Assembly: GCF_002075285.3 (NCBI RefSeq)
Contig: NZ_CP021983.2
Location: 1,980,001-2,012,000 of the forward strand
Origin: Halomicronema hongdechloris C2206
GTDB taxonomy: Bacteria > Cyanobacteriota > Cyanobacteriia > Phormidesmidales > Phormidesmidaceae
Length of the DNA stretch: 32,000 nucleotides
Reading direction: 5' to 3'
Below, one piece after another: positions 7,760 to 27,128 of this stretch. The notes below the pieces were generated by a model. The model saw nothing but the letters and a program-made list of their open reading frames with translations, had not been told where the DNA came from and searched no databases. Numbering within the stretch: position 1 is the first letter of the stretch; each line of letters begins with the position of its first letter. Position numbers and translations under genes: made by a program.

Positions 7760-9829
7760 ATGTCCAATCGCCTTGCCCAGTGTCAGAGTCTCTATCTACG
7801 TAAGCATGCTGACAACCCCATCGATTGGTGGCCTTGGTGTGATGACGCCTTAGCAGCTGCCCGTCAGGAGAATAAACCGATTTTTCTGTCCATTGGCTAC
7901 TCTAGCTGCCATTGGTGCACGGTGATGGAGGGAGAGGCGTTTTCTGATGAGGCGGTTGCCAGTTATATGAATGCCTACTTCCTACCCATCAAGGTCGACC
8001 GGGAAGAGCGTCCTGACCTCGATAGCATCTATATGCAGGCCCTACAGATGATCACTGGGCAGGGAGGATGGCCACTAAATGTGTTTCTGGCCCCAAATGA
8101 TTTGATTCCCTTCTATGGAGGCACCTATTTCCCCTTAGAGGCCCGCTATGGGCGACCAGCCTTCTTGCAGGTGTTGCAGGCCCTGCGTCAGTTCTATGAT
8201 ACGGAGGGGGCTAAGGTGGCGGCAGTGAAGTCAGAAATCATTAACAACCTGCAGCAGGCCGCCCAACTGCCGACTGGCCATCAGTTATCGCCGGAGTTAC
8301 TAGCTCGAGGGTTGGCCACTAGTGCCCGTATCCTAGCGCCAGCCATGCAGGGGACCTGCTTTCCGATGATCCCCTACGCTAACGCGGCGCTGCGAGGGCA
8401 ACGGCTTACGGAGGATGAGGGGGAGAAGGAACGACACCTCTGCCGTCAGCGGGGTCTCGACCTGGCCATGGGGGGAATCTACGACCATGTTGGGGGTGGC
8501 TTCCACCGCTATACGGTGGATCCGACCTGGACGGTTCCCCATTTCGAGAAGATGCTCTACGACAATGGTCAAATTATGGAGTATCTGGCGAATCTTTCTA
8601 GCCTAGAGGGGGAAATGCCGGTACTGCAGCGGGCTGTGGCCGGGACAGTGGGGTGGTTGAGGCGAGAAATGACGGATCTAGCGGGGTATTTTTATGCCGC
8701 CCAGGATGCCGATAGTTTCTTGACCCCGGCAGCGGCGGAACCGGAGGAGGGAGCATTTTATGTCTGGCGCTATGAAGAGTTGCAGCAATCCCTGAGTCAA
8801 TCAGAGTTTCAGGCCCTGGCGGAAGAATTTTACCTCCGAGAAGACGGCAACTTTGACGGTCAGATCGTGTTGCAACGGCAACAGGCTGGTCCCCTAGGGG
8901 AGGCAGCTGAGGCGGCCCTCAGCCAACTGTTTGCTCAACGCTACGGAGGATCGCCTGAGCAGGTTTCTAGTTGTCCGCCGGCCACGGATAACCCCATGGC
9001 CAAGGGCCAATCCTGGCCGGGACGAATTCCGCCGGTCACGGATACCAAGATGATTGTGGCCTGGAATAGCCTCATGATCTCGGGGTTGGCTAGAGCTGCC
9101 GCGGTGTTTGCCCAGCCTGACTATCTACAGTTGGCCAGCAAGGCAGCCGGTTTTATCAGCCAGCGACAACGACAGCAGGGGCGCTTCTATCGCTTGAACT
9201 ACGGTGGAGAGGCAACGGTGCTAGCCCAGGCTGAAGACTATGCCTTGGCTATTAAGGCGCTGTTGGATTTACAGCAGGCTGAGCTAGCCTTTCCAGACAC
9301 CCTTAAGTCCTACAACTGGTTGGCTGAGGCTAGGAGTCTACAGGCTGAATTTGACCAATGCCTATGGAGTCCAGAGACGGGGGGCTATTACAACACACCG
9401 CCGCAGACGGCTGCTCAGCTCCTGGTGCGGGAGCGCAGCTACCAGGACAATGCCGTGCCTTCGGCCAATGGCATTGCGATCGCAAATCTGGTGCGGTTAT
9501 TTCTACTCACGGAAGACCTGCAATATCTCGATCGGGCCGAGCAGGGGCTCAAGGCCTTCAGTCAAATCATGGCGCAACTGCCCCAAGCTTGCCCCAGCCT
9601 CTTTATCGCCCTAGACTGGTTCTCCCATCCCACCCTGGTGCGTACCACTGCCGACGGCATCCCTGCCCTCTTGCGGCAATACTGCCCTACGGCAGTATTT
9701 AGGGTCGAGGACGACTTGCCAAACGGGGCAGTAGGGCTAGTCTGCGCCGGCTTATCTTGTCAGGAACCGGCTCAGAATTGGCAACATTTACAGCAGCAAC
9801 TGCAGCAACAAATGGGCGCTCCAGCCTGA
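7760..9829 (+). CDS. thioredoxin-domain protein of the DUF255 / YyaL (N-acylglucosamine-2-epimerase-like) family
   Basis: N-terminal HADNPIDWWPWCDDALAAARQENKPIFLSIGYSSCHWCTVMEGEAF and KVDREERPDLD. Central GGFHRYTVDPTWTVPHFEKMLYDN. C-terminal (alpha/alpha)6-like region. Confidence 0.85.
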   Translation: MSNRLAQCQSLYLRKHADNPIDWWPWCDDALAAARQENKPIFLSIGYSSCHWCTVMEGEAFSDEAVASYMNAYFLPIKVDREERPDLDSIYMQALQMITGQGGWPLNVFLAPNDLIPFYGGTYFPLEARYGRPAFLQVLQALRQFYDTEGAKVAAVKSEIINNLQQAAQLPTGHQLSPELLARGLATSARILAPAMQGTCFPMIPYANAALRGQRLTEDEGEKERHLCRQRGLDLAMGGIYDHVGGGFHRYTVDPTWTVPHFEKMLYDNGQIMEYLANLSSLEGEMPVLQRAVAGTVGWLRREMTDLAGYFYAAQDADSFLTPAAAEPEEGAFYVWRYEELQQSLSQSEFQALAEEFYLREDGNFDGQIVLQRQQAGPLGEAAEAALSQLFAQRYGGSPEQVSSCPPATDNPMAKGQSWPGRIPPVTDTKMIVAWNSLMISGLARAAAVFAQPDYLQLASKAAGFISQRQRQQGRFYRLNYGGEATVLAQAEDYALAIKALLDLQQAELAFPDTLKSYNWLAEARSLQAEFDQCLWSPETGGYYNTPPQTAAQLLVRERSYQDNAVPSANGIAIANLVRLFLLTEDLQYLDRAEQGLKAFSQIMAQLPQACPSLFIALDWFSHPTLVRTTADGIPALLRQYCPTAVFRVEDDLPNGAVGLVCAGLSCQEPAQNWQHLQQQLQQQMGAPA

Positions 9830-11012: not shown

Positions 11013-11152
11013 GAACATTTCGAATTATTGAGAAAGTAAACATTTAATATCGAAATAACGGCTTCAGCCACAAGAAACTTTACTGTTATCTGAGGTGAAT
11101 AATTTTCTCTATTCACCTAATTTCTTTGTTATTTACATCTGGCATTATCTCT

Positions 11153-12235
11153 ATGACTTCTACTCTTCAGGCTCGCGAGAGCGTGGGAGCGTGGGAGCAG
11201 TTTTGCCGGTGGATCACCAGCACCGACAACCGCCTATATATTGGCTGGTTCGGCGTGCTCATGGTCCCCACTCTGCTCACTGCTACCACCTGCTTTGTCA
11301 TTGCCTTTATCGGTGCTCCTGCCGTTGACATCGACGGCATTCGTGAGCCCGTGGCCGGCTCTTTGATCTACGGCAACAATATCGTCTCCGGTGCGGTGGT
11401 GCCCTCTTCCAATGCCATCGGTCTGCACTTCTATCCCATCTGGGAAGCCGCTTCCATTGATGAGTGGCTGTATAATGGCGGCCCTTACCAGTTCATCGTC
11501 TTCCACTTCCTCATCGGCATCTTTGCCTACATGGGGCGTCAGTGGGAACTGAGCTACCGTCTGGGCATGCGCCCTTGGATCTGCGTGGCCTATAGTGCGC
11601 CGCTATCTGCGGCCACTGCTGTGTTCTTGATCTATCCCTTGGGTCAGGGCTCCTTCTCTGACGGCATGCCGTTGGGTATCAGTGGTACCTTCAACTTCAT
11701 GTTCGTGTTCCAGGCGGAGCACAATATCTTGATGCATCCCTTCCACATGTTGGGTGTAGCCGCTGTGTTCGGTGGCAGCTTGTTCTCTGCCATGCACGGC
11801 TCGTTGGTCACCTCCAGCCTGGTGCGGGAGACCACCGAGACCGAGTCTCAGAACTACGGCTACAAGTTTGGCCAAGAAGAAGAGACCTACAACATCGTGG
11901 CCGCTCACGGCTACTTCGGTCGTCTCATCTTTCAATACGCCAGCTTCAACAACAGCCGCTCTCTGCACTTCTTCTTGGGAGCATGGCCGGTAATTGGCAT
12001 CTGGTTCACGGCGCTGGGCATCAGCACCATGGCCTTCAACCTGAACGGGTTCAACTTCAACCAGTCGGTATTGGATAGCCAGGGTCGGGTGATTGGCACC
12101 TGGGCCGATGTGCTGAACCGGGCCAACCTGGGCATGGAAGTGATGCATGAGCGCAACGCTCACAACTTCCCCCTCGATCTGGCTTCCGATGACGCCGCTC
12201 CTGTGGCTCTGACAGCTCCGGCCATCAATAGCTAA
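11153..12235 (+). CDS. psbA: photosystem II reaction-centre protein D1
   Basis: 360 aa starting [10 protein letters not shown]... Near-invariant D1 sequence throughout ([79 protein letters not shown]). After Ala344 there is a 16-residue C-terminal extension. Gln at position 130, Gly80, Phe158. Confidence 0.97.
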
Positions 12236-15716: not shown

Positions 15717-15772
15717 AGCTTTTGTTGGATACTCATACGTTTATCTGGTGGGATAAGCTATCGCGCATCTAA
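15713..15772 (+). pseudogene. vapC: vapC (PIN toxin) 5' stub truncated by the IS630-family insertion
   Basis: MKLLLDTHTFIWWD is a canonical cyanobacterial VapC N-terminus. After codon 14 the frame runs into the IS terminal repeat and stops at 15770-15772. Confidence 0.7.
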
Positions 15773-16940
15773 AATGCATTAACAGCGTTTCCCTTATTCT
15801 TGAGCTTGCGGTCCCACTTTATAATCAACTCTCCCTCATTGAGTAGCTTATTTACCAGAGCCTCAAGCTCTTCTATGGACTTAAACAGACGACCAGAAAT
15901 ATATTCCTTTGCCGAATGCCAAACTAATTCTATGAGGTTATAGTCCGGACTGTATTCGGGTAGAAACTCTACCACCAAATTAGGCATCTCTAATTTTATC
16001 TTTTCAATAAATTCCTCCTTTTTATGAATACTGGCATTATCCAGAATGATGACTATCTTAGGACCCTCCTTCTCGAAATCAGCAATCTCTCTACCTTCAC
16101 TCACCCACTCATACTTGACTTCTTCATAAAATCCCTTAAGAACTTTGTAGAAATTCTCTCCTGTCCCCTTTGCCAGAAAGTCAACCAGTCGCTTCTTGTC
16201 TGAAAAGCGGACTCCTCCCATCACACTTACCCTACCCTTTCTGCGGATCCCTGAAACCTTCTTGCGACTTCCTTTTTTGGTCCAAAGTTTTCGACGAATT
16301 ACTCTTAAACTAAAGCCAAACTCATCCCAAAACCATACCTGCAGACTATTTGGCGTCTCTTTTGTAATTCTTAAATATTCATCTAACTTAGCCTTAAATA
16401 GTTTGCGCTTCTCTGGATCTTGCTTATCCTCTAAGCTATACTTAGCCCAGAGGAAAACGTACTACTTTTTTGACTTTAGTATTCTCCTGATCTGGCTTCC
16501 ACTTAAGCGAATCCCTGTTTCTTGTTCCAGATAAACCGATAAGCGTGCAGCCGTCCATCTCCCAAATTCATATCCCAACCCTTGCGGATCTTTTTCGATA
16601 ACCTCTAGCAATAAGTCAACGTATTGATCCGTTGCCTTATGAAAGTTTCCTTTCATCCTCTCATCGATCAGGCTATCTAGATTGCTTGGGTCGCCATGCG
16701 TACACCAATAGGCTACTTTTCTTAGAGAACAACCAAGAAAATCAGCAATCTCTTGTTGCGTTTTGCCATCATTGCGTAGTAGAAGGATTAGAATCCTCTC
16801 GCGAATATCAGGATGCTCATGGGACTTGAGCTGCTTTTGTAACTCTTGCTTCTCTTCTAGCGTTAAGTGGTTCTTGATTGGCATAACTAACCTACTTGAA
16901 CCATACCTTATGATACGTAATTTAGATGCCTAACAGCTTA
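15754..16940 (-). mobile_element. IS630/Tc1-mariner-family insertion sequence (~1.19 kb including flanking TA)
   Basis: Terminal inverted repeats TAAGCTATCGCGCATCTAAAATGC (15754-15777) versus the reverse complement of 16917-16940, TAAGCTGTTAGGCATCTAAATTAC (18/24 match). TA lies at both ends. Visibly AT-richer than the flanks. Confidence 0.8.
15769..16884 (-). pseudogene. IS630-family DDE transposase: a single 372-codon frame interrupted by one in-frame TAG (16462-16464)
   Basis: ORFs 16462-16884 (HTH/winged-helix N-terminus) and 15769-16224 (DDE_3 motifs IVIILDNASIHKK, LPEYSPDYNLIELVW) are in the same frame. My translation of 16225-16461 in that frame (YVFLWAKYSLEDKQDPEKRKLFKAKLDEYLRITKETPNSLQVWFWDEFGFSLRVIRRKLWTKKGSRKKVSGIRRKGRVS) has no stop. 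Confidence 0.8.
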
Positions 16941-17284
16941 CTACTATTTGGTACGCTCTTCAGCTAATCAATCGCCCGATTTTTCTCTGGAATGTTTTCC
17001 CGCTGCATCCCCATGAGCCAAATGACCAAATGACGAACCGCTGCCACAAAAAAGTTGAGCGTAAAGCTTTTCAAAAACTGAATTCGTGGCTTATTGAAAC
17101 TTTGAGACCTAAACAGGTGATTGCAATTGGTCGTGATGCTCAATGTTCAATAACCGAGCTTGGTATCAAGCCAGTAAAAATTCGACATCCTAGTTACGGA
17201 GGAAAGTCTGAATTTTTTGCAGGACTTTCTGAGGCTTACGGAATTTCAATTGCTTCCGAAGCTTACCAAGGAAAACTTTTTTAG
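16934..17284 (+). pseudogene. 5'-truncated uracil-DNA-glycosylase-superfamily gene remnant
   Basis: The open frame from 16934 reads QLTTIWYALQLINRPIFLWNVFPLHPHEPNDQMTNRCHKKVE...PKQVIAIGRDAQ...IRHPSYGG. This resembles the middle and C-terminal UDG motifs (N-x-x-P...NR...E, HPS). The N-terminal GExPG-type motif region is absent. AT-rich like the adjacent IS. Confidence 0.45.
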
Positions 17285-17401
17285 AAGAAATTTTTAGTAC
17301 TCTTGAGCTGCCAAAATCTGCTCCACCGTCAACCCCAACTCTGGAAACGTTAGACACGGCACTGTCTCCTCTTCCATATATTCCGGGCTCTCCTGGGATA
17401 A

Positions 17402-18184
17402 TTATGCAGCAGCAGGAGAAAAATGCCAGCAGATGAGGCAGCGGAGCCGAAATCGCTCAAAGTTGGTGAACCCGTAACCAGAGCGCTTGATCAACTTTAG
17501 GCGAGTATTGATGCCTTCGACGACACCGCTTGTGGTGCGGTGTTCAAAGTACTGGAGGATTTCGCCAAACCATCGCTTCATCGTTGCCACAGCCTCGGGG
17601 TAGAGGGATTGCGCGGTTCCCATCCAGCCCAGGAAACCCGGCAGGGCTTGAGCCCAAGACTGAGCCTCAAATAGAGTCCTAAAGGCTTCTTTGGTCTGAT
17701 GCATCAAGGCGAGTTTCGGCGAAACAGCTTTGACCTCAACGAGCTTGTCCTGCTGGGTCTTGGTGAGATGGGCTTCTGGCTTGAGGAGGGCATACTTACT
17801 GGATTTGAGCGCTGCTTTAGCCGCCTCAGGAGTGACGCCCTCGGCTAAAGCCTCGGGTGTCCGCCGGAGGGCGTTACGGGCTTGATTCAATTCCTGATTG
17901 ACCAGACTCATGACATGGAAACGGTCGGCCACAATCTCGGCTTGAGGCATCAGGCGATGCACTAAGCCCCGGTAATTGCCGGAGAGATCCATGCTGACTT
18001 CTTCAATGTTTGAGAGCACTTCGGCACCCCAGGTGTTGAGCACGGCTTCAATCGCCGCATGAGTCCGCGCTGGAGCCATCCCAATCAGCCTGTGAGTATC
18101 GAGGTCACTCAAGACCACAGCAAAGTCCTTGTGACCTTTACGTAGCGCGATTTCGTCGATGCCCAACCGCCGCAATCCACTCAA
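17402..18184 (-). CDS. ISL3 transposase, C-terminal DDE part (reached by a -1 shift)
   Basis: LGIDEIALRKGHKDFAVVLSDL..., ...VSMDLSGNYR..., ...ADRFHVM..., ...TSGVVEGINTRLKLIKRSGYGFTNFERFRLRCL are typical DDE_Tnp_ISL3 motifs. The frame stays open upstream through RKKVCIDLSG into the A-run. Confidence 0.8.
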   Translation of the reverse strand: MSGLRRLGIDEIALRKGHKDFAVVLSDLDTHRLIGMAPARTHAAIEAVLNTWGAEVLSNIEEVSMDLSGNYRGLVHRLMPQAEIVADRFHVMSLVNQELNQARNALRRTPEALAEGVTPEAAKAALKSSKYALLKPEAHLTKTQQDKLVEVKAVSPKLALMHQTKEAFRTLFEAQSWAQALPGFLGWMGTAQSLYPEAVATMKRWFGEILQYFEHRTTSGVVEGINTRLKLIKRSGYGFTNFERFRLRCLICWHFSPAAA

Positions 18185-18636
18185 GTCAATACAGACTTTT
18201 TTTCGCTGACATACTCCACCATGGACCAGACGATATCTTCGCTCAACCCGTGCTGTCGCGCCACATTAGCCGTATTACTATGAATCACCTCACTCACCAC
18301 CACCTCGGCATACCGGTCCGTGTACACCCGACGCGCGCCGACAAACTCCAGCTCCTCGCTGAAGGGTTTACCGCAGGTCGAACACTTAAACTGGCGGCGA
18401 TTCACCCGTAACCAGGTCTTCCGGTAATGGCTGATGGGTAGGTCACGCACCAGGTAGCCATGATTCTGATGGAGGTGGTGGCTCAAAGTCCCGCAGCGAG
18501 GACAGATTGCTGTGTCCCTGTGCGCTTCTACCTCCAGAATCAAGCCATCCTCGCTCTCCTGGTATGACTCCACATCAATGCCAGACAACCCCAAGAGTTC
18601 ACTCAAGAGAGGTACCATAGCGATACGGTATAGCAT
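18181..18636 (-). CDS. ISL3 transposase, N-terminal part (zinc-finger and HTH)
   Basis: CPRCG...H...RVNRRQFKCSTCGKPF is a zf-ISL3-type motif. The ORF ends ...VSEKKSVLT* directly after an A_AAA_AAG heptamer. Confidence 0.8.
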   Translation of the reverse strand: MLYRIAMVPLLSELLGLSGIDVESYQESEDGLILEVEAHRDTAICPRCGTLSHHLHQNHGYLVRDLPISHYRKTWLRVNRRQFKCSTCGKPFSEELEFVGARRVYTDRYAEVVVSEVIHSNTANVARQHGLSEDIVWSMVEYVSEKKSVLT

Positions 18637-18708
18637 CTACTACACCAGCATACTCATTCCTGCAGAGCCATATTCCGCCTTCCGATAATCCCTATCCTAA
18701 GGGCGTAT

Positions 18709-19127
18709 TTAACGGTTGGGGGAGTAGAGAACAGCAGGGTCTGGAACATGCGGAAATAGGGTTTCGAAGCGCTGATTGACCCAAGCGAGTTGCAAGAGCA
18801 AAAGATGGTTGAAGCCGTCCTCACTCCAGCGCATGCCGACCCCTTTGAACCGTTGTTGAATCAACCATTTGCAGGCACTTTCGACCATGCCGGAGCGGAA
18901 CGCTTCTCGCCAAACAGGGCTTGGGTGGCTCGGGCGAGGTGACCCGCCGCATGAAAGGAATCCAGTACCGCCACCGCACAGTGGCTGAAGCCGGTGCGAT
19001 ACACCCGCCAAAATCCCCGTCCCCCATCACTGAGCCAAATGACCTGAGGAGCCGACTCGAAGGACTGGCGTCGCGCTTCCAACTGCAGCTGCGGAATGAA
19101 CTCATCAATATCTCCCAAAACCGCCAC
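18709..19127 (-). pseudogene. ISKra4-like transposase remnant (5'-truncated and frameshifted)
   Basis: One frame reads ...VIWLSDGGRGFWRVYRTGFSHCAVAVLDSFHAAGHL... Another reads ...SGMVESACKWLIQQRFKGVGMRWSEDGFNHLLLLQLAWVNQRFETLF, a C-terminal motif typical of ISKra4-type DDE transposases. No N-terminal part was found upstream. Confidence 0.5.
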
Positions 19128-19493
19128 CAGTCTGCGGTGTTGGTTTGGGTACAGGGACTATTGTCCCTTACCCATTTTTCTTGTGGGGCTCCCCTGACTC
19201 CTGGATGCGCCCTATCCTAAACATCAGCATCGCTCCTGGACACCCTGCGGGAAGACGAAAAAGAGAAGCGCCAGGCGATAATCGGTCCAGACCAAGGCAC
19301 GTAATAGAGAGGGTTGCAGTTCCAGCATGGAGTGTGAATATAGGCAGTCCGGTGATCCATTATGGCAGGGGCTGGGGGCATCGGCATGGCCCCTGGCCTT
19401 TAATGTGAATAATGTTGGATTTTGGGGGAGTACTTCTGGAATTTGGAGAAAACTGTGGGAATACGTACTTGGCGTTGCGGACTATTCCTCGTT

Positions 19494-20078
19494 ATGCAGT
19501 ATCCCCTAGAACTCACCTTCAAATTTTGGGCCCTGGCTCCCCAGATCTCGGTGACGGATGCCAGTGGCCAGCTGATGCTGTACGTACGTCAGCGGTTATT
19601 CAAGCTACGCGAGGCGATTCACGTCTTCGCCGATGCCAAGCGGAGTCAGGAACTCTATCGCATCCAGGCCGACCGCATCATTGACTTTTCCGCCCGCTAC
19701 ACGTTTACAGATCCCCAGGGTATGGAGCTAGGGGCCGTTAAGCGCCGCGGTTGGCGCTCGATCTGGCGAGCCCGCTATGACATCTTTGACGGTGACGCGG
19801 TGAGCTTCACTATCCAGGAAGAAAATCCCTGGGTGAAGGTGTTCGACTCCCTCTTTGCAGAGGTGCCCATTGTTGGCATGTTTACGGGCTTTGTGTTTAA
19901 CCCGGTCTATCTGGTCAGTCGCCTTGATGGCCCAACGGTGATGCGGCTGGCGAAAAAGCCCACGTTTCTTTCCCGTAAGTTTACGGTCAAGCAGACAGCC
20001 TATCTGAGTGAGCCGGAGGCAACCCAGGTGGTGTTGAGCCTGCTGATGATGCTGTTGCTGGAGCGTAATCGAGGCTAA
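19494..20078 (+). CDS. conserved hypothetical protein, possibly LURP-one-related / scramblase-like (Tubby C-terminal-like) fold
   Basis: From the ATG at 19494: MQYPLELTFKFWALAPQISVTDASGQLMLYVRQRLFKLRE... Beta-rich repeats of short strands are followed by a C-terminal hydrophobic helix VVLSLLMMLLLERNRG. The family call is from memory only. Confidence 0.45.
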   Translation: MQYPLELTFKFWALAPQISVTDASGQLMLYVRQRLFKLREAIHVFADAKRSQELYRIQADRIIDFSARYTFTDPQGMELGAVKRRGWRSIWRARYDIFDGDAVSFTIQEENPWVKVFDSLFAEVPIVGMFTGFVFNPVYLVSRLDGPTVMRLAKKPTFLSRKFTVKQTAYLSEPEATQVVLSLLMMLLLERNRG

Positions 20079-20360
20079 AAACGACTGGGCAGGGAGTACC
20101 AGGTTGGGCCGAGTTGCGATCGCATCCTCATCCCAGCCGCGCCAAGCAAACGACGATTCCAGGCCGTGATGGAGCCAGCGTAGGAGCTGCCAGGGCAGTT
20201 CTACGAAGTTGCCATAAAGACCCATTGATTTTTCTTTGGGCCGCAACGATTTCTGCCTGGTCCTTTGCTATAGTCAGGCGGCTCTCTGTGAAGTTTCCAT
20301 GGGCCGCAGCGATTTTTCGGTGGGACGCCAGCATTTCTATGGGGGGCAGAGCGACAGTCG

Positions 20361-20392
20361 GAATTCAAAATTCAAAATTCAAAGTTCAAAAT
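20361..20392 (+). repeat. 32-nt octamer-based repeat, copy A1 (GAATTCAAAATTCAAAATTCAAAGTTCAAAAT)
   Basis: Built from AATTCAAA-like octamers. 30/32 identical to copy A2. Confidence 0.9.
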
Positions 20393-20476
20393 ACCCTGCG
20401 GCAAGCCTCGCTTCGCTCGTCTACAAAATTCAAAGGTAGATGAGTAGCATGCACCCCGTAGCGTCCCCTTCTACTT

Positions 20477-20556
20477 AATTTTGAATTGACAACGGTTCGA
20501 CAAGTTGCTCCTGCGGAGCCGCTACGCGAACACCCCATGCTTTGAATTTTGAATTG
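20477..20556 (+). repeat. REP-like module, copy 1 (AATTTTGAATTG-ACAACGGTTCGA...CACCCCATGCTTTGAATTTTGAATTG)
   Basis: Shares both ends and the ACGGTTCGA / CACCCCATGC cores with 21199-21254. Copy 1 has an extra ~25-nt insert. It ends 7 nt before the RAYT ATG. Confidence 0.75.
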
Positions 20557-20563
20557 TCTCGTC

Positions 20564-20761
20564 ATGCCACGACAACCGCGTCAACTCAAGCCCAATTACT
20601 GCTACCACGTCACCACTCGCTGCAATAATCGAGACTTTCGCCTGACTCGGGTCGAATGCAAAGAGGTTTTGCTGTATGCGATTGAGCGTTGCCAGGCCAA
20701 ATACGGCTTCAAGCTCTACGCTCTCTGCATCATGAGCAACCACGATAGAATTCAAAATTAG
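20564..20761 (+). pseudogene. REP-associated tyrosine transposase (RAYT, IS200/IS605-like Y1) 5' fragment
   Basis: MPRQPRQLKPNYCYHVTTRCNNRDFRLTRVECKEVLLYAIERCQAKYGFKLYALCIMSNH is the N-terminal third of a Y1 transposase. The frame leaves the family consensus just where the HUH motif (SNHVHLL) is expected, enters repeat A2 and stops. Confidence 0.65.
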
Positions 20762-20779
20762 AAATTCAAAGTTCAAAAT
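20748..20779 (+). repeat. 32-nt repeat, copy A2 (GAATTCAAAATTAGAAATTCAAAGTTCAAAAT)
   Basis: Contains the stop of the RAYT fragment and the first two bases of the ATG of the four-helix-bundle gene. Confidence 0.9.
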
Positions 20780-21161
20780 GAGTGAACAGCCCCTCAGGCC
20801 AATTACGGAGCGAACTTTCGAATTTGCGGTGCGGATTGTTAGGCTATGTGACAGCCTAGACAATAAGGCAAGGATAAGCTGCCCCCTGATCACGCAACTG
20901 ATTCGTTCTGGTACATCAGTAGGGGCCAATGTGGAGGAGTCCCAAGCTGCCCAAAGCAGGGCTGATTTCATTCATAAACTAGAGATTGCTTTGAAGGAGT
21001 TGCGGGAAACTCGATATTGGTTAAGGCTGTTGGTAGCGACCGAGATAGTGTCTGCAGGCAAGTTACAGGCTTTACTGACCGAGTCAGAGGAGTTGGTGAA
21101 GATTCTTTCGAAGATTATCGTGAATACGAAGAGGAAAGGAAATGAAGGAAGTCAAAATTAG
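20778..21161 (+). CDS. four-helix-bundle protein (23S rRNA intervening-sequence protein / Avd-like family)
   Basis: FEFAVRIVRLC..L......LITQLIRSGTSVGANVEESQAAQSRADFIHKLEIALKELRETRYWLRLL is a hallmark motif of this family (SIGANIAEG...S..DF..KL.IA.KE..ET.YWL.L). Confidence 0.85.
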   Translation: MSEQPLRPITERTFEFAVRIVRLCDSLDNKARISCPLITQLIRSGTSVGANVEESQAAQSRADFIHKLEIALKELRETRYWLRLLVATEIVSAGKLQALLTESEELVKILSKIIVNTKRKGNEGSQN

Positions 21162-21409: not shown

Positions 21410-23404
21410 CTACAGTTTACAAGTCGTTGCACGAGAAAAGAGAAGCTCAAAACGCTCGAGGGCAGAACCGATCCCATAAGCCCGGCCAAAACCAAAAAAG
21501 CCCAGCCAAAAGCCAAACGGAGGGAGGTGGCCGCTTGGGGCAGCGGTGCTTAATGTTACATCCGAAAGCCCAATCCAGTTACCATCCACACGCCATCCCA
21601 CCCTATCGCCAAAGCACTGCCAGGCAGCTTCATCATACTCGCCATCCGGTGATCCGCCACACTCTTCTACGTAGATAGCTTTCTGCACACTGAAGCCAAA
21701 CTGGCCATCACTGGCATCCACCCAAAGCTGATCGAGTTTTAGGACGGCATTGCAGGGAAAAGTCTCTAGACTCTCAGAGTCCAACCAGCCTTCGGATTCT
21801 CGGTTGGCAACTTTCAGCATAATATTACGGGTTGCCTCATCGGCTTCTTTCCACTGTCCGGCATCCAGCAACTCTGCTAATCGCCTGTAGTCTTCATCTG
21901 CCCCAGACTCTAATGCTGTCTCATTCGGATCTAACGCTTCTCCTTCAGACGGTGCATCCTCTGGCAGTGCAGGGTTCGGCGAGGATGATAAGGGGACATC
22001 TTTCAGAGCCTGGTTAATGCCGAAGGTAATCAGGATGCCAACCCCGCCTAGACCCACCCATTTCAGAAATTGCTGTCGCGATATTGTGGCATCGCTAGTA
22101 GCTGTGGAGGATTGAGATGACGATCGAGGCGGCGTTGATTGGGGGGCTGTCTTAGGTCGGCGGCTCGCCGCGTCTCGATCAGTTGCTTCTGGCTGTCCAC
22201 CTTGGGTGTTGGTAGCTTGTCGTTGTCGGTCCGTCTCAGCCTGGCGTCTACGCTCGGCCTCTTCCTGGGCCTGCTGTTGGCGCCTTCTAGCAGCGCCCAG
22301 TCGCTGGCGTTCCAAGCCTAAGGCATACTCCTCCAGATCACGGCCATTCAGGGCGGCGCGTTCCATTGCGGCCACATCCTCGGGCTTTAGTCGCAGATGA
22401 GCTCGAAAATCAGCCAGGTCTTGTATGATACGAGGGCTCAGCGGGGTTTCGGTCTGCAGGCACTGCTGCAGGGTGTCCTGATATTCTTGCCGCTTGCGTT
22501 GATATTCCTGAAACGGCTTCAGCACCTCGGCTTCAATGGCCTCGGCTTCTGTATCTGAGAGCCCAAAGTCTTGTCGCAGCGCCCTCAGCAGGCGCTTGGC
22601 AGGAATGGAAAATTGCCCAGTAGCAGCTCGTTTCTCAGCTTCTTTGCGGTATTTCACCCTAGGATCATCCTGGGGTGAGCGGGCCAGTCGAATCCGATAG
22701 CCCTCGTCCTTCAGGGTGATCATCTTGGGGCTCATGGCCGGAGACGTATCCCTGACCTTGCGGCCCGCAAAATGGTGCAGCTCATCGACGGTAATCACCC
22801 CATCTTCGTCTTCGTCGGCGGCACCGCTGACGATGCCTTCCACCAGATAACGGGTATAGATGGACAGATCGGCACCCTTCTCTTCGAAGGAATAGTCCAC
22901 TGCACTGGTGGAGGTCAGCACCACCCGCCCTTCTGCCCCCAGCTGCTCTGTCAAGTTGATGTCGCCATCATCCCGAGCCATCAGGTCACCGAAGGCGCCG
23001 CTGAAGCAGCAGTCCAGGATCAATACCTGATACTTGGCCTGACAGCTACGAACACAGTCGTGGACGAAACGGGCGGAGGTGGCAGTGGAGCGGACTAAGC
23101 GATTGTTGACCTTCTCGGTATTGCAGGCGGCGAAGTACAAGTCACGGCGCTCATCTTTGACCCCATGACCGGAGAAAAACAGCACAACCAAGTCATCTGG
23201 TTTCCGTCCTTGGAACCATAGTTCAATTTCCCGAGCTATGGTGGCATGGCTGGGATTGATGATCACCTTCACCTGGTCAAACCCGCCCAAGGTAGGTTCC
23301 TGCAGTACCTTCTGTAGTGCTGCCACGTCATTAGGAGCGGCTGGCAACGGCTGTAGACCTTTGCCATACTCGCCGACGCCGATTAAGAGGGCGTACTTCC
23401 CCAT
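21410..23404 (-). CDS. membrane-anchored orthocaspase (peptidase C14) with C-terminal GUN4 porphyrin-binding domain
   Basis: N-terminal p20-like domain KYALLIGVGEY..., catalytic His in VVLFFSGHG and catalytic Cys in QVLILDCCFSGAF. A helical/coiled-coil Arg/Gln/Glu-rich middle. One hydrophobic helix FLKWVGLGGVGILITFGINQAL. C-terminal GUN4 signature AGQWKEADEAT...FPCNAVLKLDQLWVDASDGQFGFSVQKAIY...VGW...APSGHLP. Confidence 0.85.
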   Translation of the reverse strand: MGKYALLIGVGEYGKGLQPLPAAPNDVAALQKVLQEPTLGGFDQVKVIINPSHATIAREIELWFQGRKPDDLVVLFFSGHGVKDERRDLYFAACNTEKVNNRLVRSTATSARFVHDCVRSCQAKYQVLILDCCFSGAFGDLMARDDGDINLTEQLGAEGRVVLTSTSAVDYSFEEKGADLSIYTRYLVEGIVSGAADEDEDGVITVDELHHFAGRKVRDTSPAMSPKMITLKDEGYRIRLARSPQDDPRVKYRKEAEKRAATGQFSIPAKRLLRALRQDFGLSDTEAEAIEAEVLKPFQEYQRKRQEYQDTLQQCLQTETPLSPRIIQDLADFRAHLRLKPEDVAAMERAALNGRDLEEYALGLERQRLGAARRRQQQAQEEAERRRQAETDRQRQATNTQGGQPEATDRDAASRRPKTAPQSTPPRSSSQSSTATSDATISRQQFLKWVGLGGVGILITFGINQALKDVPLSSSPNPALPEDAPSEGEALDPNETALESGADEDYRRLAELLDAGQWKEADEATRNIMLKVANRESEGWLDSESLETFPCNAVLKLDQLWVDASDGQFGFSVQKAIYVEECGGSPDGEYDEAAWQCFGDRVGWRVDGNWIGLSDVTLSTAAPSGHLPPFGFWLGFFGFGRAYGIGSALERFELLFSRATTCKL

Positions 23405-23409
23405 GGCTC

Positions 23410-23844
23410 CTAGTGTGAGCTTGCTTGGTCAGAGGTTGCTTGCCGATCCAGGATCTTAAGGCGCAGATTTGCTAACCGTTCGATGGTCTCTGCTGCCTGG
23501 TCTAGCTCTTGTTTATTACGGTACTCAATGCTGTAGGTCATACCGTCGATGTCACCCGAGAGGGTCAGGGTCTTGCCATAAAACTGGCTACCGAAAAAGT
23601 CCACCACTTTCCGCAGATTCTCGCGGTTGATCTCGGCGGTGAGAATGCCCATCAAAAACGCTGTGGCTCCAGGCTTGGCGGCATCCGGCATGTCGGTCTC
23701 CCTGGCCAGATGAGCTTCGCTAGCTAACTCGCCCGCCTGCAGCTCATCGGCTATAGTGAGCAAAAATTCTTCTAGCTGATCCCGGTCATATCCCAGACCA
23801 GCCTCACTGAAGTCGATCAAGACATGGTGAACCGAAGACATCAA
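23410..23844 (-). CDS. small acidic partner protein of the orthocaspase (possibly the EACC1 type of effector-associated constant component)
   Basis: 144-aa ORF whose stop lies 5 nt upstream of the caspase ATG, on the same strand. Its layout (acidic helical N-terminus, DAAKPGA segment, hydrophobic FLMGILTAEI, beta-rich C-half) fits my recollection of small constant partners of prokaryotic caspases. Not verifiable without an HMM search. Confidence 0.5.
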   Translation of the reverse strand: MMSSVHHVLIDFSEAGLGYDRDQLEEFLLTIADELQAGELASEAHLARETDMPDAAKPGATAFLMGILTAEINRENLRKVVDFFGSQFYGKTLTLSGDIDGMTYSIEYRNKQELDQAAETIERLANLRLKILDRQATSDQASSH

Positions 23845-25448: not shown

Positions 25449-26438
25449 ATGCCGTCTATGCCGTCAATTACCTACAGCCCAGCCTATACGCTGGTTCCCA
25501 CCTACGAATGTTTCAATCGCTGCAGTTACTGTAATTTTCGCGTCGATCCAGGGCAGGACCCCTGGCTATCGCTGGCTCAGGCCCGGCAGCGGCTGGCCCC
25601 ATTATCCGACGCCGTGAGTGAAATTCTCATCCTCAGTGGCGAAGTTCACCCCCACAGTCCCCGCCGGGCTGCCTGGGTGCAGCACCTCTATGATCTGGGC
25701 CGCCTGGCCCTAGACATGGGCTTTTTACCCCACACCAATGCCGGTCCCCTCAGCCGGGCCGAGATGGCCTACCTGCAGCAGGTGAATGTGTCCATGGGGC
25801 TGATGCTAGAGCAGATGACGCCTGCCCTGCAGCAGACCGTCCATCGCCATGCCCCCAGCAAAGCACCACAACAACGCCTGCAGCAGCTGCAGTGGGCCGG
25901 GGAGCTGGGCATTCCCTTTACCACAGGCTTGCTGCTGGGTATCGGGGAAACCGAGCAGGATTGGCTGGACACCCTAGATGCGATCGCACAGGTACACCAG
26001 CGCTGGGGCCACATCCAAGAAGTGATTCTACAACCCCATCAGCCGGGTCAGGGTCAGGCCTGGGCCGGGCCTGCCTTTCCTGCCCAGCGGTTAGTCACGG
26101 CCATTCACCTGGCCCGGCAGCGACTGCCTGCAGACATTACCCTGCAAATTCCCCCCAACCTAGTCGATACCGATCAAACCCTATGGGCCTGCTTAGAGGC
26201 AGGGGCACGGGACCTGGGCGGCATCAGCCCCATCGACGAAGTCAACCCAGACTATCCCCATCCCAGCCACCAGCAGCTGGCCCATCGCCTCCGCGGCGGC
26301 GGTTGGCCACTGGTGCCGCGACTGCCCATTTACCCGCATTACGACAACTGGGTAGCACCAGCTTTACAAACAGCCGTACAAACCTGGCGCCATCGCCTAT
26401 CCCTTCAAGAGACTCAAAATCCGATCGACGTTATCTAA
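25449..26438 (+). CDS. cofG: radical-SAM FO synthase subunit 1 (7,8-didemethyl-8-hydroxy-5-deazariboflavin synthase CofG)
   Basis: ITYSPAYTLVPTYECFNRCSYCNFR (CxxxCxxC cluster with the CofG-type context), SGE, and NAGPLSRAEM..LQQVNVSMGLMLE. About 330 aa, as expected for CofG. Confidence 0.75.
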   Translation: MPSMPSITYSPAYTLVPTYECFNRCSYCNFRVDPGQDPWLSLAQARQRLAPLSDAVSEILILSGEVHPHSPRRAAWVQHLYDLGRLALDMGFLPHTNAGPLSRAEMAYLQQVNVSMGLMLEQMTPALQQTVHRHAPSKAPQQRLQQLQWAGELGIPFTTGLLLGIGETEQDWLDTLDAIAQVHQRWGHIQEVILQPHQPGQGQAWAGPAFPAQRLVTAIHLARQRLPADITLQIPPNLVDTDQTLWACLEAGARDLGGISPIDEVNPDYPHPSHQQLAHRLRGGGWPLVPRLPIYPHYDNWVAPALQTAVQTWRHRLSLQETQNPIDVI

Positions 26439-27128
26439 ATCTCCGACCAGTCGCCGCGCCGGGTAGGGCCAGACCCGCACCAGCGTAGGTGTGGCTGATA
26501 CCTGATCCGTTTCGGCCTGCTCTGGATGCTTATACACATCCACCACTTTCAATGTGTAGGGCTGCTGCAGATACTGATCGAGGGTGGCCTGCAGGGCCGT
26601 CAAAATATACTCAGTGGTACTGGTATAGCCCGCTACGAAAAGCCGCAACACATAGCCAGTGGGAGAGTCGCCAAACGTAGCGGTGGGCGTCTCGGTCGCG
26701 GGTTCTGCCGTAGTCGAGGTAGGCACCTGCAACACCAGATCATGATATTGCCACAACTGGGGAGACTGCTGGCGGTAGTTCCCTAAGACACTGGTGCTAC
26801 AGCCTGCCACCACCGAATACACGGGTTGCCAAGATAGAGCATCTAGATCGAAGACCGTATTGAGCAATGCCTGATAGCGCATCACCCGGGGATAGGCCTC
26901 GGCAACCAATTGCCACTGCCCCGTGGTCGGATCCTGCCAAGACTCCACTGTAGCGGTGTAGCACGGCAGCAAAAACTCGGGGGATGTCGGCAGCGCCAGA
27001 CGAGCTTGCAGGGTGGCACAGAGATCTCGATGCCAGCGGGCCTGCTTATGGGGAGCAATACAGTAAACCAAATCACCCCCCGGCGTAAACAGGGCAATCC
27101 CCTTGAATTCTTCGGCAGACCTGCTCAT
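26397..27128 (-). CDS. KaiB-domain protein with ~150-aa N-terminal extension (long KaiB-like)
   Basis: The C-terminal YVLRLFVAGYTSTTEYILTALQATLDQYLQQPYTLKVVDVYKHPEQAETDQVSATPTLVRVWPYPARRLVGDL matches the KaiB thioredoxin-like core. The N-terminal domain is unassigned. Confidence 0.7.
   Translation of the reverse strand: MSRSAEEFKGIALFTPGGDLVYCIAPHKQARWHRDLCATLQARLALPTSPEFLLPCYTATVESWQDPTTGQWQLVAEAYPRVMRYQALLNTVFDLDALSWQPVYSVVAGCSTSVLGNYRQQSPQLWQYHDLVLQVPTSTTAEPATETPTATFGDSPTGYVLRLFVAGYTSTTEYILTALQATLDQYLQQPYTLKVVDVYKHPEQAETDQVSATPTLVRVWPYPARRLVGDLDNVDRILSLLKG

Follow-up and report, generated by a model that had tools for sequence, protein, structure and literature searches.

A predicted EACC1-caspase module with a GUN4-paralogue input domain in the cyanobacterium Halomicronema hongdechloris C2206

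The EACC1-caspase system ('System 4') was predicted computationally by Kaur, Burroughs, Iyer & Aravind (eLife 2020, PMC7159879) and combines a constant component with a variable domain. In their description, EACC1 has a conserved hydrophobic helix and a central patch of small residues, the system is mainly actinobacterial, transmembrane (TM) helices occur in about one-third of the EACC1-linked caspases, and GUN4 is a recurrent module in such fusions, for which a role as tetrapyrrole sensor was proposed. Here, we describe a pair of open reading frames (ORFs), designated ORF-S and ORF-L, on the minus strand of a 32,000-nt stretch of DNA from Halomicronema hongdechloris C2206 (the whole stretch is called the window below). 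Our analysis suggests that ORF-S is a divergent EACC1-family protein and that ORF-L, a caspase-like protease with a C-terminal GUN4-type domain, is its partner; on balance, the pair is probably an EACC1-caspase module that serves as a protease-gated suicide or defence cassette.

Evans et al. (bioRxiv 10.1101/2025.11.14.688446) characterised EACC1-KrAvs12 of Ktedonobacter racemifer, which responds to phage tail connector proteins. The caspase cuts its EACC1 protein (KrEACC1) at a putative site after Asp49, the C-terminal fragment alone is toxic, liposome leakage was observed with cleaved EACC1 only, and the N-terminal fragment was modelled as pairing with two C-terminal strands. An earlier reading of the H. 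hongdechloris locus, made from the letters of the DNA and hereafter called the sequence-only reading, held that no EACC1-type partner had been characterised experimentally; the cleavage and the membrane-permeabilising C-terminal fragment reported in that preprint overturn this statement. The gasdermin-protease and Pepco-protease modules are similar in that a protease removes an inhibitory part and a pore-forming fragment is freed, although their folds are unrelated to that of ORF-S.

Caspase-GUN4 fusions have already been catalogued. In a survey of 473 cyanobacterial orthocaspases (PMC8283722), 29 have a GUN4 accessory domain; MaOC3 and MaOC5 of Microcystis aeruginosa are among them. Their layout is that of ORF-L, with Peptidase_C14 and its intact dyad at the N-terminus and GUN4 at the C-terminus, and some have one TM helix after the protease; however, the accessible parts of this literature do not mention an upstream EACC1-type partner or the activation of a toxin. 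With the EACC1-caspase systems, the H. hongdechloris locus shares the order of a small 5' gene and a 3' gene with an N-terminal caspase domain, as well as a constant pair that is combined with a variable C-terminal domain. It differs from them in that the ORF-S subfamily is cyanobacterial, is 137-143 amino acids (aa) long and has an extra C-terminal helix. Compared with EACC1-KrAvs12, the presumed input of ORF-L is a GUN4 paralogue and not an Avs/STAND NTPase, and the likely P1 residue of the small protein is Lys56 and not Asp.

The small protein and its caspase partner

The open frame of ORF-S covers positions 23410-23844 and encodes 144 aa when counted from a TTG codon; the codon after the TTG is an ATG (23841), preceded at a short distance by AGGAG, and this start gives the 143-aa protein of the public record (WP_080810622.1, 'hypothetical protein', which uses the ATG). 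The stop codon of ORF-S is separated by five bases from the ATG start of ORF-L (public record WP_088429588.1, 'GUN4 domain-containing protein'). The operon-like two-gene unit proposed in the sequence-only reading stands, with a small protein of 143 aa preceded by AGGAG.

More than 145 homologues of ORF-S were found; they are 137-143 aa long and 60-72% identical, all are cyanobacterial where the source is named, and the mean column identity of the family is 75%. A direct identity for ORF-S from hidden Markov models (HMMs) was sought and abandoned: Pfam, NCBIfam and PADLOC were empty, with only weak DivIVA and FecR_C matches far below the cut-offs, and PF19953 (EACC1) matched neither ORF-S nor 27 members of its subfamily, even at E = 10. 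The HMM check of the two proteins thus gave a divided result, since ORF-L passed the Peptidase_C14, GUN4 and NF047832 models and ORF-S matched none directly.

A profile built from the ORF-S subfamily was then run against 1.84 billion representative proteins (Z = 1.84e9). It retrieved approximately 100 distant relatives, mostly of 124-140 aa, and PF19953 was matched by 9 of 58 relatives in the extended family. One of these proteins, the cyanobacterial P0257, passes the Pfam EACC1 model (25.1 bits, cut-off 23.6) in a match that spans almost all of its length and is recognised by the HMM made from the ORF-S subfamily only (40.2 bits, E 2.7e-5 at the same Z). A Peptidase_C14 gene (locus L023) starts 10 nt after the P0257 gene and encodes a protein that shares 47% identity with ORF-L over 353 residues (E 2e-100). 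For comparison, KrEACC1, as given in the supplementary data of Evans et al., barely passes Pfam EACC1 with 28.2 bits. Because the subfamily profile reaches a Pfam-passing EACC1 protein that is adjoined by an ORF-L-like caspase, this transitive link indicates that ORF-S is a divergent member of the EACC1 family that is missed by the current models.

A PDB sequence profile search with the ORF-S family also returned polyubiquitin; its strong E-values were the sum of a 30-residue match over tandem repeats, single ubiquitin reached an E of approximately 0.8, and the candidate was rejected. The residues concerned, approximately 85-115 of ORF-S (about 23497-23589, minus strand), resemble the first beta-hairpin and helix of ubiquitin (GKTLTL...E), which we take to be a chance resemblance.

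The partner protein is readily recognised. In ORF-L, Pfam Peptidase_C14 (PF00656) matched residues 3-218 with an E of 5e-18, and the NCBIfam model NF047832 ('caspase, EACC1-associated type') matched residues 4-218 with 163.7 bits against a curated cut-off of 140; seven ORF-L homologues scored 158-174 bits with the same model. The N-terminus of KrAvs12, which among EACC1-linked caspases is the only one investigated by experiment, reached 84 bits with NF047832 and matched no other model, and a BLASTP comparison of ORF-L with it aligned only the active-site region (E 4e-4). The catalytic dyad is formed by His80 in FFSGHG and Cys133 in LDCCFSG and is present in 20 of 22 related loci; ORF-L shares with the EACC1-linked caspases both the LILDCCFS active-site motif and the NF047832 model. 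The loop DEDEDGVITVDE within the protease domain fits the EF-hand pattern perfectly, as do the corresponding loops of 18 of the 22 related loci, and Pfam EF-hand matches are weak; the loop could make the protease calcium-sensitive. Similar DxDxDG loops occur in many bacterial C14 proteins.

The protease is followed by a helical neck, a charged Q/E/R-rich stretch, an S/T/P-rich linker, a hydrophobic segment, the GUN4 domain and a hydrophobic tail. The neck contains approximately 1.5 copies of a repeat unit of about 58 aa, of which the L023 caspase (L023:1147-3636) has five to six, and gives a weak match to Pfam Tic110; it may be a spacer or an oligomerisation element.

Scanning one genome per species, we found 22 loci with a relative of ORF-S, all of them cyanobacterial. 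In 22 of 22, the next gene on the same strand, approximately 20-80 nt away, encodes an ORF-L-type caspase, and L023 is organised alike. The prediction of an EACC1-type constant partner in the sequence-only reading is borne out by this adjacency together with the profile link to P0257. The pair is 60-79% identical across several cyanobacterial lineages, and the gene order around the loci is not shared with the window. Among 102 flanking ORFs, Pfam recognised 130 families, none of which occurred more than four times, and there was no conserved third gene. Since the flanks are not shared between the loci, the pair is a self-contained cassette that has landed in many contexts. In two of the loci, L018 (4173-5837, minus strand) and L021 (4252-5835, minus strand), the 4.5-kb flanks contained matches to HemD (uroporphyrinogen-III synthase) and a tetrapyrrole methylase; they were attributed, on the basis of size and location alone, to similar-sized ORFs that lie upstream of the EACC1-like gene and are divergent from it. 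The HemD-type neighbour probably reflects shared ancestry rather than a functional link, and GUN4 is missing from the L018 caspase.

The conservation is unevenly distributed along the caspase proteins, with a median pairwise identity of 76% for the caspase domain, 58% for the neck and 27% for the remainder. Three genomes carry two copies each, and the copies differ mainly in the C-terminal part. A Pfam scan of ten orthologous caspases detected GUN4 in five, one of which has two copies, and no recognised C-terminal domain in the other five. The small protein, the caspase domain and the neck are therefore the constant part of the module and the C-terminus is the variable part.

Predicted cleavage and release of ORF-S

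An AlphaFold2 (AF2) model of ORF-S was obtained with a predicted local distance difference test score (pLDDT) of 79 and a predicted template modelling score (pTM) of 0.67. The model runs from beta1-alpha1-beta2 (residues 4-45) through a low-confidence loop (residues 46-65) to beta3-alpha2-beta4-beta5 and a long helix, alpha3. A Foldseek search of this model against the PDB gave no match at E < 0.01; the best (E 0.013) were weak matches to ferredoxin-like or dimeric alpha/beta-barrel folds. The modelled layout matches that published for EACC1, in which the N-terminal fragment pairs with C-terminal strands and the cut is placed just before a hydrophobic stretch: both proteins begin with an alpha+beta part, which a linker connects to a conserved hydrophobic segment with many small residues. 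In ORF-S, the loop leads straight into GATAFLMGILTAEI, a hydrophobic stretch that contains Gly. Among 74 aligned sequences, Lys56 of the linker is invariant and Pro52 nearly so, and in the overlapping segment GATAFLMGILTAEIN, Gly65 and Leu67 are invariant and Thr68 and Glu70 nearly invariant.

In a joint alignment, Asp49 of KrEACC1 lies opposite Lys56 of ORF-S. Orthocaspases and metacaspases that have been characterised cleave on the C-terminal side of Arg or Lys, and for this reason our best guess for the P1 residue is Lys56, with Asp50 as the alternative.

We propose that ORF-S is a latent alpha+beta toxin in which residues 1-45 would keep residues 66-143 soluble and inactive. Once activated, the protease of ORF-L (His80/Cys133) would cut the exposed linker, most likely after Lys56 or else near Asp50, and the freed C-terminal fragment, starting with GATAFLMGILTAEI, would oligomerise and permeabilise the membrane, so that the cell would be killed or arrested. 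The GUN4-paralogue domain at the C-terminus of ORF-L would be an exchangeable input that sets the firing of the protease, probably via ligand-induced clustering of the protease domains, and it may sit across the membrane behind a signal-anchor that resembles those of the twin-arginine translocation (Tat) pathway. The linker cut and the pore formation are proposed because the ORF-S model shares its plan with the characterised KrEACC1. The sequence-only reading had named regulator, inhibitor and substrate as possible roles of the small protein; because Evans et al. saw cleavage of EACC1 and a pore-forming C-terminal fragment, ORF-S is most likely a substrate and latent toxin, and the role of regulator loses ground.

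The GUN4-type domain of ORF-L and the possible trigger

All of the motifs quoted in the sequence-only reading are present in ORF-L, and its assignments of an intact C14 dyad and a GUN4 fold are confirmed. Pfam GUN4 (PF05419) matched residues 502-631 with an E of 4.9e-33 and 114.7 bits against a cut-off of 29.2, PDB sequence matches were obtained to 1z3x, 4ykb and 1y6i, and the motifs WKEADEAT, FPC, LWVDASDGQFGFSVQK and GHLP were found. An AF2 model of residues 436-664 was confident over the GUN4 core, and the top 14 Foldseek matches of this model in the PDB were all GUN4 structures, with target-normalised TM-scores of up to 0.81. The domain therefore has the fold of GUN4, the Mg-chelatase cofactor (Synechocystis Sll0558; 1y6i, 4xkb, 4xkc, 7e2t), with WKEAD, LWxxxSxGxFGFSVQ and GHLP kept; the target-normalised TM-score was at most 0.81 against Arabidopsis GUN4 and approximately 0.55 against Synechocystis GUN4. 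It differs from true GUN4 in that it lacks the N-terminal helical domain and an in-register LxNxLR motif and has a cysteine in FPC, a variable hydrophobic loop after GHLP and the ending LFSRxxTCKL.

By these features, the domain belongs with the paralogue-type GUN4 domains of multidomain signalling and immune proteins. Such paralogues have a variable G/W/F-rich loop between GHLP and a C-terminal motif, L[FA]SRxxxC[KN][LI], which is conserved across GUN4 paralogues linked to TIR, EAD, CHAT and caspase domains and has the alternative ending LLS[RH][RK]DL. The cysteines of FPC and of the C-terminal motif are thus two conserved cysteines of the paralogue type that might form a disulfide or bind a ligand. 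The nearest GUN4 domains are fused to TIR, PF19955, CHAT, trypsin, kinase, FGE-sulfatase and, according to one source annotation, NACHT NTPase modules; PF19955 is presumably the effector-associated domain (EAD). Because its nearest relatives are fused to several other modules, the paralogue GUN4 is an exchangeable unit that is common among signalling and immune-type proteins of cyanobacteria, as was also seen by Kaur et al. The GUN4 domains closest to that of ORF-L (37-48% identical) belong to TIR-GUN4 proteins of Nostocales (e.g., P0349, P0354, P0360 and P0415). These proteins share with ORF-L the succession of cytoplasmic effector domain, R-x-x-FLKW motif, Gly-rich hydrophobic segment and GUN4; they differ from it in having TIR instead of the caspase and a true twin arginine in RRQFLKW.

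The PADLOC model PD-T4-6 (PDLC04062) matched ORF-L with an E of 9e-38. It was rejected as an identification of the system: only model positions 302-448 of 450 were aligned, on residues 497-663 (21413-21916, minus strand), and ORF-L had no Pfam kinase match. The last third of the PD-T4-6 model thus resembles the GUN4 region and tail, and PD-T4-6 calls in cyanobacteria may simply reflect GUN4 domains.

As to what the domain recognises, one answer, which we consider possible though less than probable, is that the pair mediates anti-phage abortive infection, with the GUN4 paralogue recognising a phage protein or an infection-induced change as the Avs sensors do on other EACC1-caspases. The response of EACC1-KrAvs12 to tail connector proteins is in line with this, as is the fusion of the same GUN4 subtype to TIR, CHAT, trypsin, EAD, kinase and NACHT, which are typical immune modules; furthermore, the context of the cassette differs in each genome and at times includes PIN, AAA_21, MmeI or IS200-like genes, and insertion sequence (IS) elements adjoin the pair in the window. 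However, the 60-79% identity across lineages is unusually conservative for a sensor engaged in an arms race, the window offers no defence-island context, and the PD-T4-6 match is confined to the GUN4-like C-terminal part.

A less likely answer is that ORF-L is a transmembrane tetrapyrrole sensor with a cytoplasmic caspase and a periplasmic or lumenal GUN4 domain, in which Mg-protoporphyrin, another free porphyrin or a bilin, stemming from photo-oxidative damage or from the pigment of lysed neighbours, would trigger proteolysis. This explanation is compatible with the EACC1-caspase reading, to which it adds only a trigger and a topology. In its favour are the GUN4 fold, with best structural matches (4xkc, 4xkb and 7e2t) to porphyrin- or bilin-bound Synechocystis GUN4, the Tat-like motif and uncharged segment before the domain with their counterparts in related proteins (described below), and the proposal of a GUN4 sensor by Kaur et al. 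(PMC7159879), together with the TM helices that they noted in part of the EACC1-linked caspases. The residues of the binding site point the other way. Synechocystis GUN4 has LxNxLR after GHLP; within this motif, porphyrins cannot be bound without Arg214, nor bilins without Asn211. ORF-L reads GHLP-PFGFWL, with Gly for Asn211 and Leu for Arg214 in register; both residues are therefore absent in register, and Asn211 is kept by no GUN4 paralogue. The arginine of the LFSR motif might stand in for Arg214. Tetrapyrrole sensing by the ORF-L domain is thus a hypothesis that its sequence supports weakly, and the description of the domain as porphyrin-binding in the sequence-only reading is not established.

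The topology bears on the same explanation. The hydrophobic stretch FLKWVGLGGVGILITFGINQAL comprises residues 446-467. For the segment FLKWVGLGGVGILITFGIN, the Kyte-Doolittle mean over 19 residues is 1.47 (usual threshold 1.6) and the summed Hessa dG is +4.6 kcal/mol, simple hydrophobicity measures that fall short of the usual TM thresholds and do not settle its TM status. In most orthologous caspase-GUN4 proteins, the region from neck to GUN4 lacks a hydrophobic segment, so that the family as a whole is not characterised by a transmembrane arrangement, and some orthologues have a different C-terminal domain altogether. Directly before the segment, SRQQFLK matches the Tat consensus S/T-R-R-x-F-L-K except that Gln takes the place of the second Arg, and the 19 uncharged residues after FLK are WVGLGGVGILITFGINQAL. 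The FLK core and a moderately hydrophobic, Gly-rich uncharged stretch are as in Tat signals; the consecutive arginines and the N-terminal position of a strict Tat signal are lacking, since the motif reads RQ and is internal (residues 442-448 of 664).

The caspases of L008, L021 and L009 have this motif and segment in the corresponding position, as SRQQFLKW or TRQQFLKW and, in L009, TRQKFLKV. Approximately ten near GUN4 relatives, mostly TIR-GUN4 proteins, have a true RRQFLKW with a Gly-rich segment, and one has RKQFLKW; in the TIR-GUN4 proteins, RRQFLKW lies at about residue 155, between TIR and GUN4. The motif before a paralogue GUN4 was noted in P0349, P0354, P0356, P0359, P0360, P0363, P0377 and P0415. 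About ten stand-alone GUN4 paralogues (e.g., P0370, P0373 and P0381) begin with a lipoprotein-like signal, MKSLFSILGLSFLSLTLTNC. Because of these RRQFLKW motifs and lipoprotein-like signal peptides, the paralogue GUN4 subtype is often predicted to be extracytoplasmic or exported. A literature search combining the GUN4 domain and twin-arginine terms found no discussion of a Tat motif before GUN4 domains. For ORF-L itself, an N-in/C-out topology is about evenly balanced against the alternative. Of the TM helix and the opposite-sides topology that the sequence-only reading had assumed, what survives is that the Tat-like SRQQFLK keeps such a topology plausible for ORF-L; as a clear TM helix, the segment is marginal, and it is absent in most orthologues.

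The remaining alternatives are more doubtful. That ORF-S is a non-toxic chaperone, inhibitor or adaptor of the protease and the pair a non-lethal regulator, for example of protein turnover or differentiation, appears improbable. The missing direct EACC1 match would suit such a role, as would the length of ORF-S (143 aa against approximately 125 in a typical EACC1, owing to the extra C-terminal helix), its very high conservation and the housekeeping roles that reviews also give to orthocaspases. Against it stand the EACC1 link through the subfamily profile, the close relationship between the partner caspases and the conserved linker followed by a hydrophobic segment, which are arranged as in the characterised toxin. 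Still less credible is a death-receptor-like ORF-L, shared in design with the RRQFLKW TIR-GUN4 proteins, in which the GUN4 domain is exported via the internal Tat-type signal-anchor, senses an outside or lumenal tetrapyrrole-like danger signal, such as pigment of damaged thylakoids or lysed kin, and sets off the cytoplasmic caspase and thereby the EACC1 pore-former; if true, bacteria would possess an outside-in path to cell death that is driven by a caspase.

The reading of the pair as an EACC1-caspase module has its own difficulties. ORF-S has no EACC1 match in Pfam or NCBIfam, even at E = 10, and hhalign of the ORF-S family against the single KrEACC1 sequence was not significant (probability 0.6%). 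KrEACC1 is the sole member tested experimentally, comes from another phylum and is described in a preprint (bioRxiv 10.1101/2025.11.14.688446). The putative cut of KrEACC1 follows an Asp, whereas the caspase of ORF-L is expected to cut after a basic residue, and a Pro, which many proteases disfavour, stands right after Lys56. ORF-L contains neither an NTPase nor another known oligomerising sensor, its GUN4-paralogue input domain has no assigned ligand, and the survey of the window genes revealed no recognisable defence island around the pair. These points weigh against the proposal.

Features, neighbourhood and implications

The features of the two proteins are listed in Table 1.

Table 1. Positions of ORF-S, ORF-L and their parts in the window
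Feature	Position	Strand	Basis or description
ORF-S	23410..23841	-	143 aa; assigned as a divergent EACC1-family protein, predicted latent pore-forming toxin
ORF-S residues 1-45, beta1-alpha1-beta2, predicted autoinhibitory half	23707..23841	-	AF2 pLDDT 75-92; analogy to KrEACC1 N-fragment
ORF-S residues 46-65, linker with candidate cleavage site (R47, D50, P52, K56)	23647..23706	-	pLDDT down to ~57
ORF-S residues 58-72, GATAFLMGILTAEIN, conserved hydrophobic small-residue-rich segment	23626..23670	-	Conservation; description by Kaur et al.
ORF-S residues 66-143, beta3-alpha2-beta4-beta5-alpha3, predicted toxic part	23413..23646	-	AF2; suggested by analogy to KrEACC1 C-fragment
ORF-L	21410..23404	-	664 aa; EACC1-associated caspase with GUN4-paralogue domain
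ORF-L residues 3-218, C14 (orthocaspase) protease domain; His80 at 23165-23167, Cys133 at 23006-23008	22751..23398	-	PF00656, NF047832
ORF-L residues 197-208, EF-hand-like loop DEDEDGVITVDE within the protease domain	22781..22816	-	Pattern D-x-[DNS]-x-[DNS]-G-x-[ILV]-x-x-x-E
ORF-L residues 241-360, helical neck, motif LGLSxxEAxxIE...YQxKxQEYE, constant module	22325..22684	-	Median pairwise identity 58% among orthologues
ORF-L residues 361-440, charged Q/E/R-rich helical stretch, then S/T/P-rich low-complexity linker	22085..22324	-	Reading of the sequence; poorly conserved
ORF-L residues 442-448, Tat-like SRQQFLK, with 19 uncharged Gly-rich residues (449-467), candidate signal-anchor	22004..22081	-	Reading of the sequence
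ORF-L residues 502-631, GUN4-fold domain of paralogue type, presumed input/sensor	21512..21901	-	PF05419, PDB matches, AF2 and Foldseek
ORF-L residues 632-664, C-terminal tail: G/F/W-rich loop and helix ending LFSRATTCKL	21413..21511	-	Helix pLDDT ~80-87

The two sides of the pair differ in gene content. On the higher-coordinate side are a xanthine/uracil permease, a radical-SAM gene, a KaiB-domain protein and a PilT-like ATPase, and this side is housekeeping in character (permease, radical-SAM and KaiB-domain genes). On the lower-coordinate side are a gene for a four-helix-bundle protein of the 23S-rRNA-intervening-sequence type, an IS200-like fragment, an ISL3 transposase and IS630-like ORFs, the IS genes being located at approximately 15.7-20.8 kb. 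The sequence-only reading had placed the operon at the edge of a mobile-element-rich patch; this holds for the lower-coordinate side, but the other side is housekeeping and no defence island is present.

The patch of IS remnants extends over window positions 15769-20761. It comprises the IS630-like ORFs (15769-16884), with a dip of the G+C content to 41% and a strong negative GC skew, an ISL3 transposase that is broken into two ORFs (17402-18636), a region at 18.7-19.2 kb in which many short ORFs overlap, and the IS200-like fragment (20549-20761). The four-helix-bundle gene (20778-21161, plus strand) is convergent to the caspase gene, and a weak relative of it lies directly 3' of the pair in L009 (about 8566-8718). 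Elsewhere in the window, a 369-aa ORF (11126-12235, plus strand) contains a full Photo_RC (D1/D2-type) domain (E 1e-88) and would be a psbA or psbD paralogue, which could be of interest in a chlorophyll f producer, and a 243-aa protein (26397-27128, minus strand) has a KaiB domain in its C-terminal 80 residues only; its N-terminal 160 residues had no Pfam match.

With caspase-GUN4 fusions as such already known, the new elements are the assignment of the upstream 'hypothetical' gene to EACC1 via a subfamily that HMMs miss, the strict and self-contained cyanobacterial cassette, the predicted cleavage loop of ORF-S and the Tat-like motif before the GUN4 domain. H. hongdechloris is a filamentous cyanobacterium that makes chlorophyll f, and a link between pigment status and programmed death in such an organism would be of ecological interest, although the residues examined give it no support. 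The Tat-like motif before a paralogue GUN4 raises the question of extracytoplasmic input domains. The EACC1 HMMs miss a well-conserved cyanobacterial subfamily, and annotation and defence-system finders therefore under-count such modules. The assignment would also provide a testable mechanism for the GUN4-linked orthocaspases, which have so far been merely catalogued: within an EACC1 toxin-activation module, they would supply the protease.

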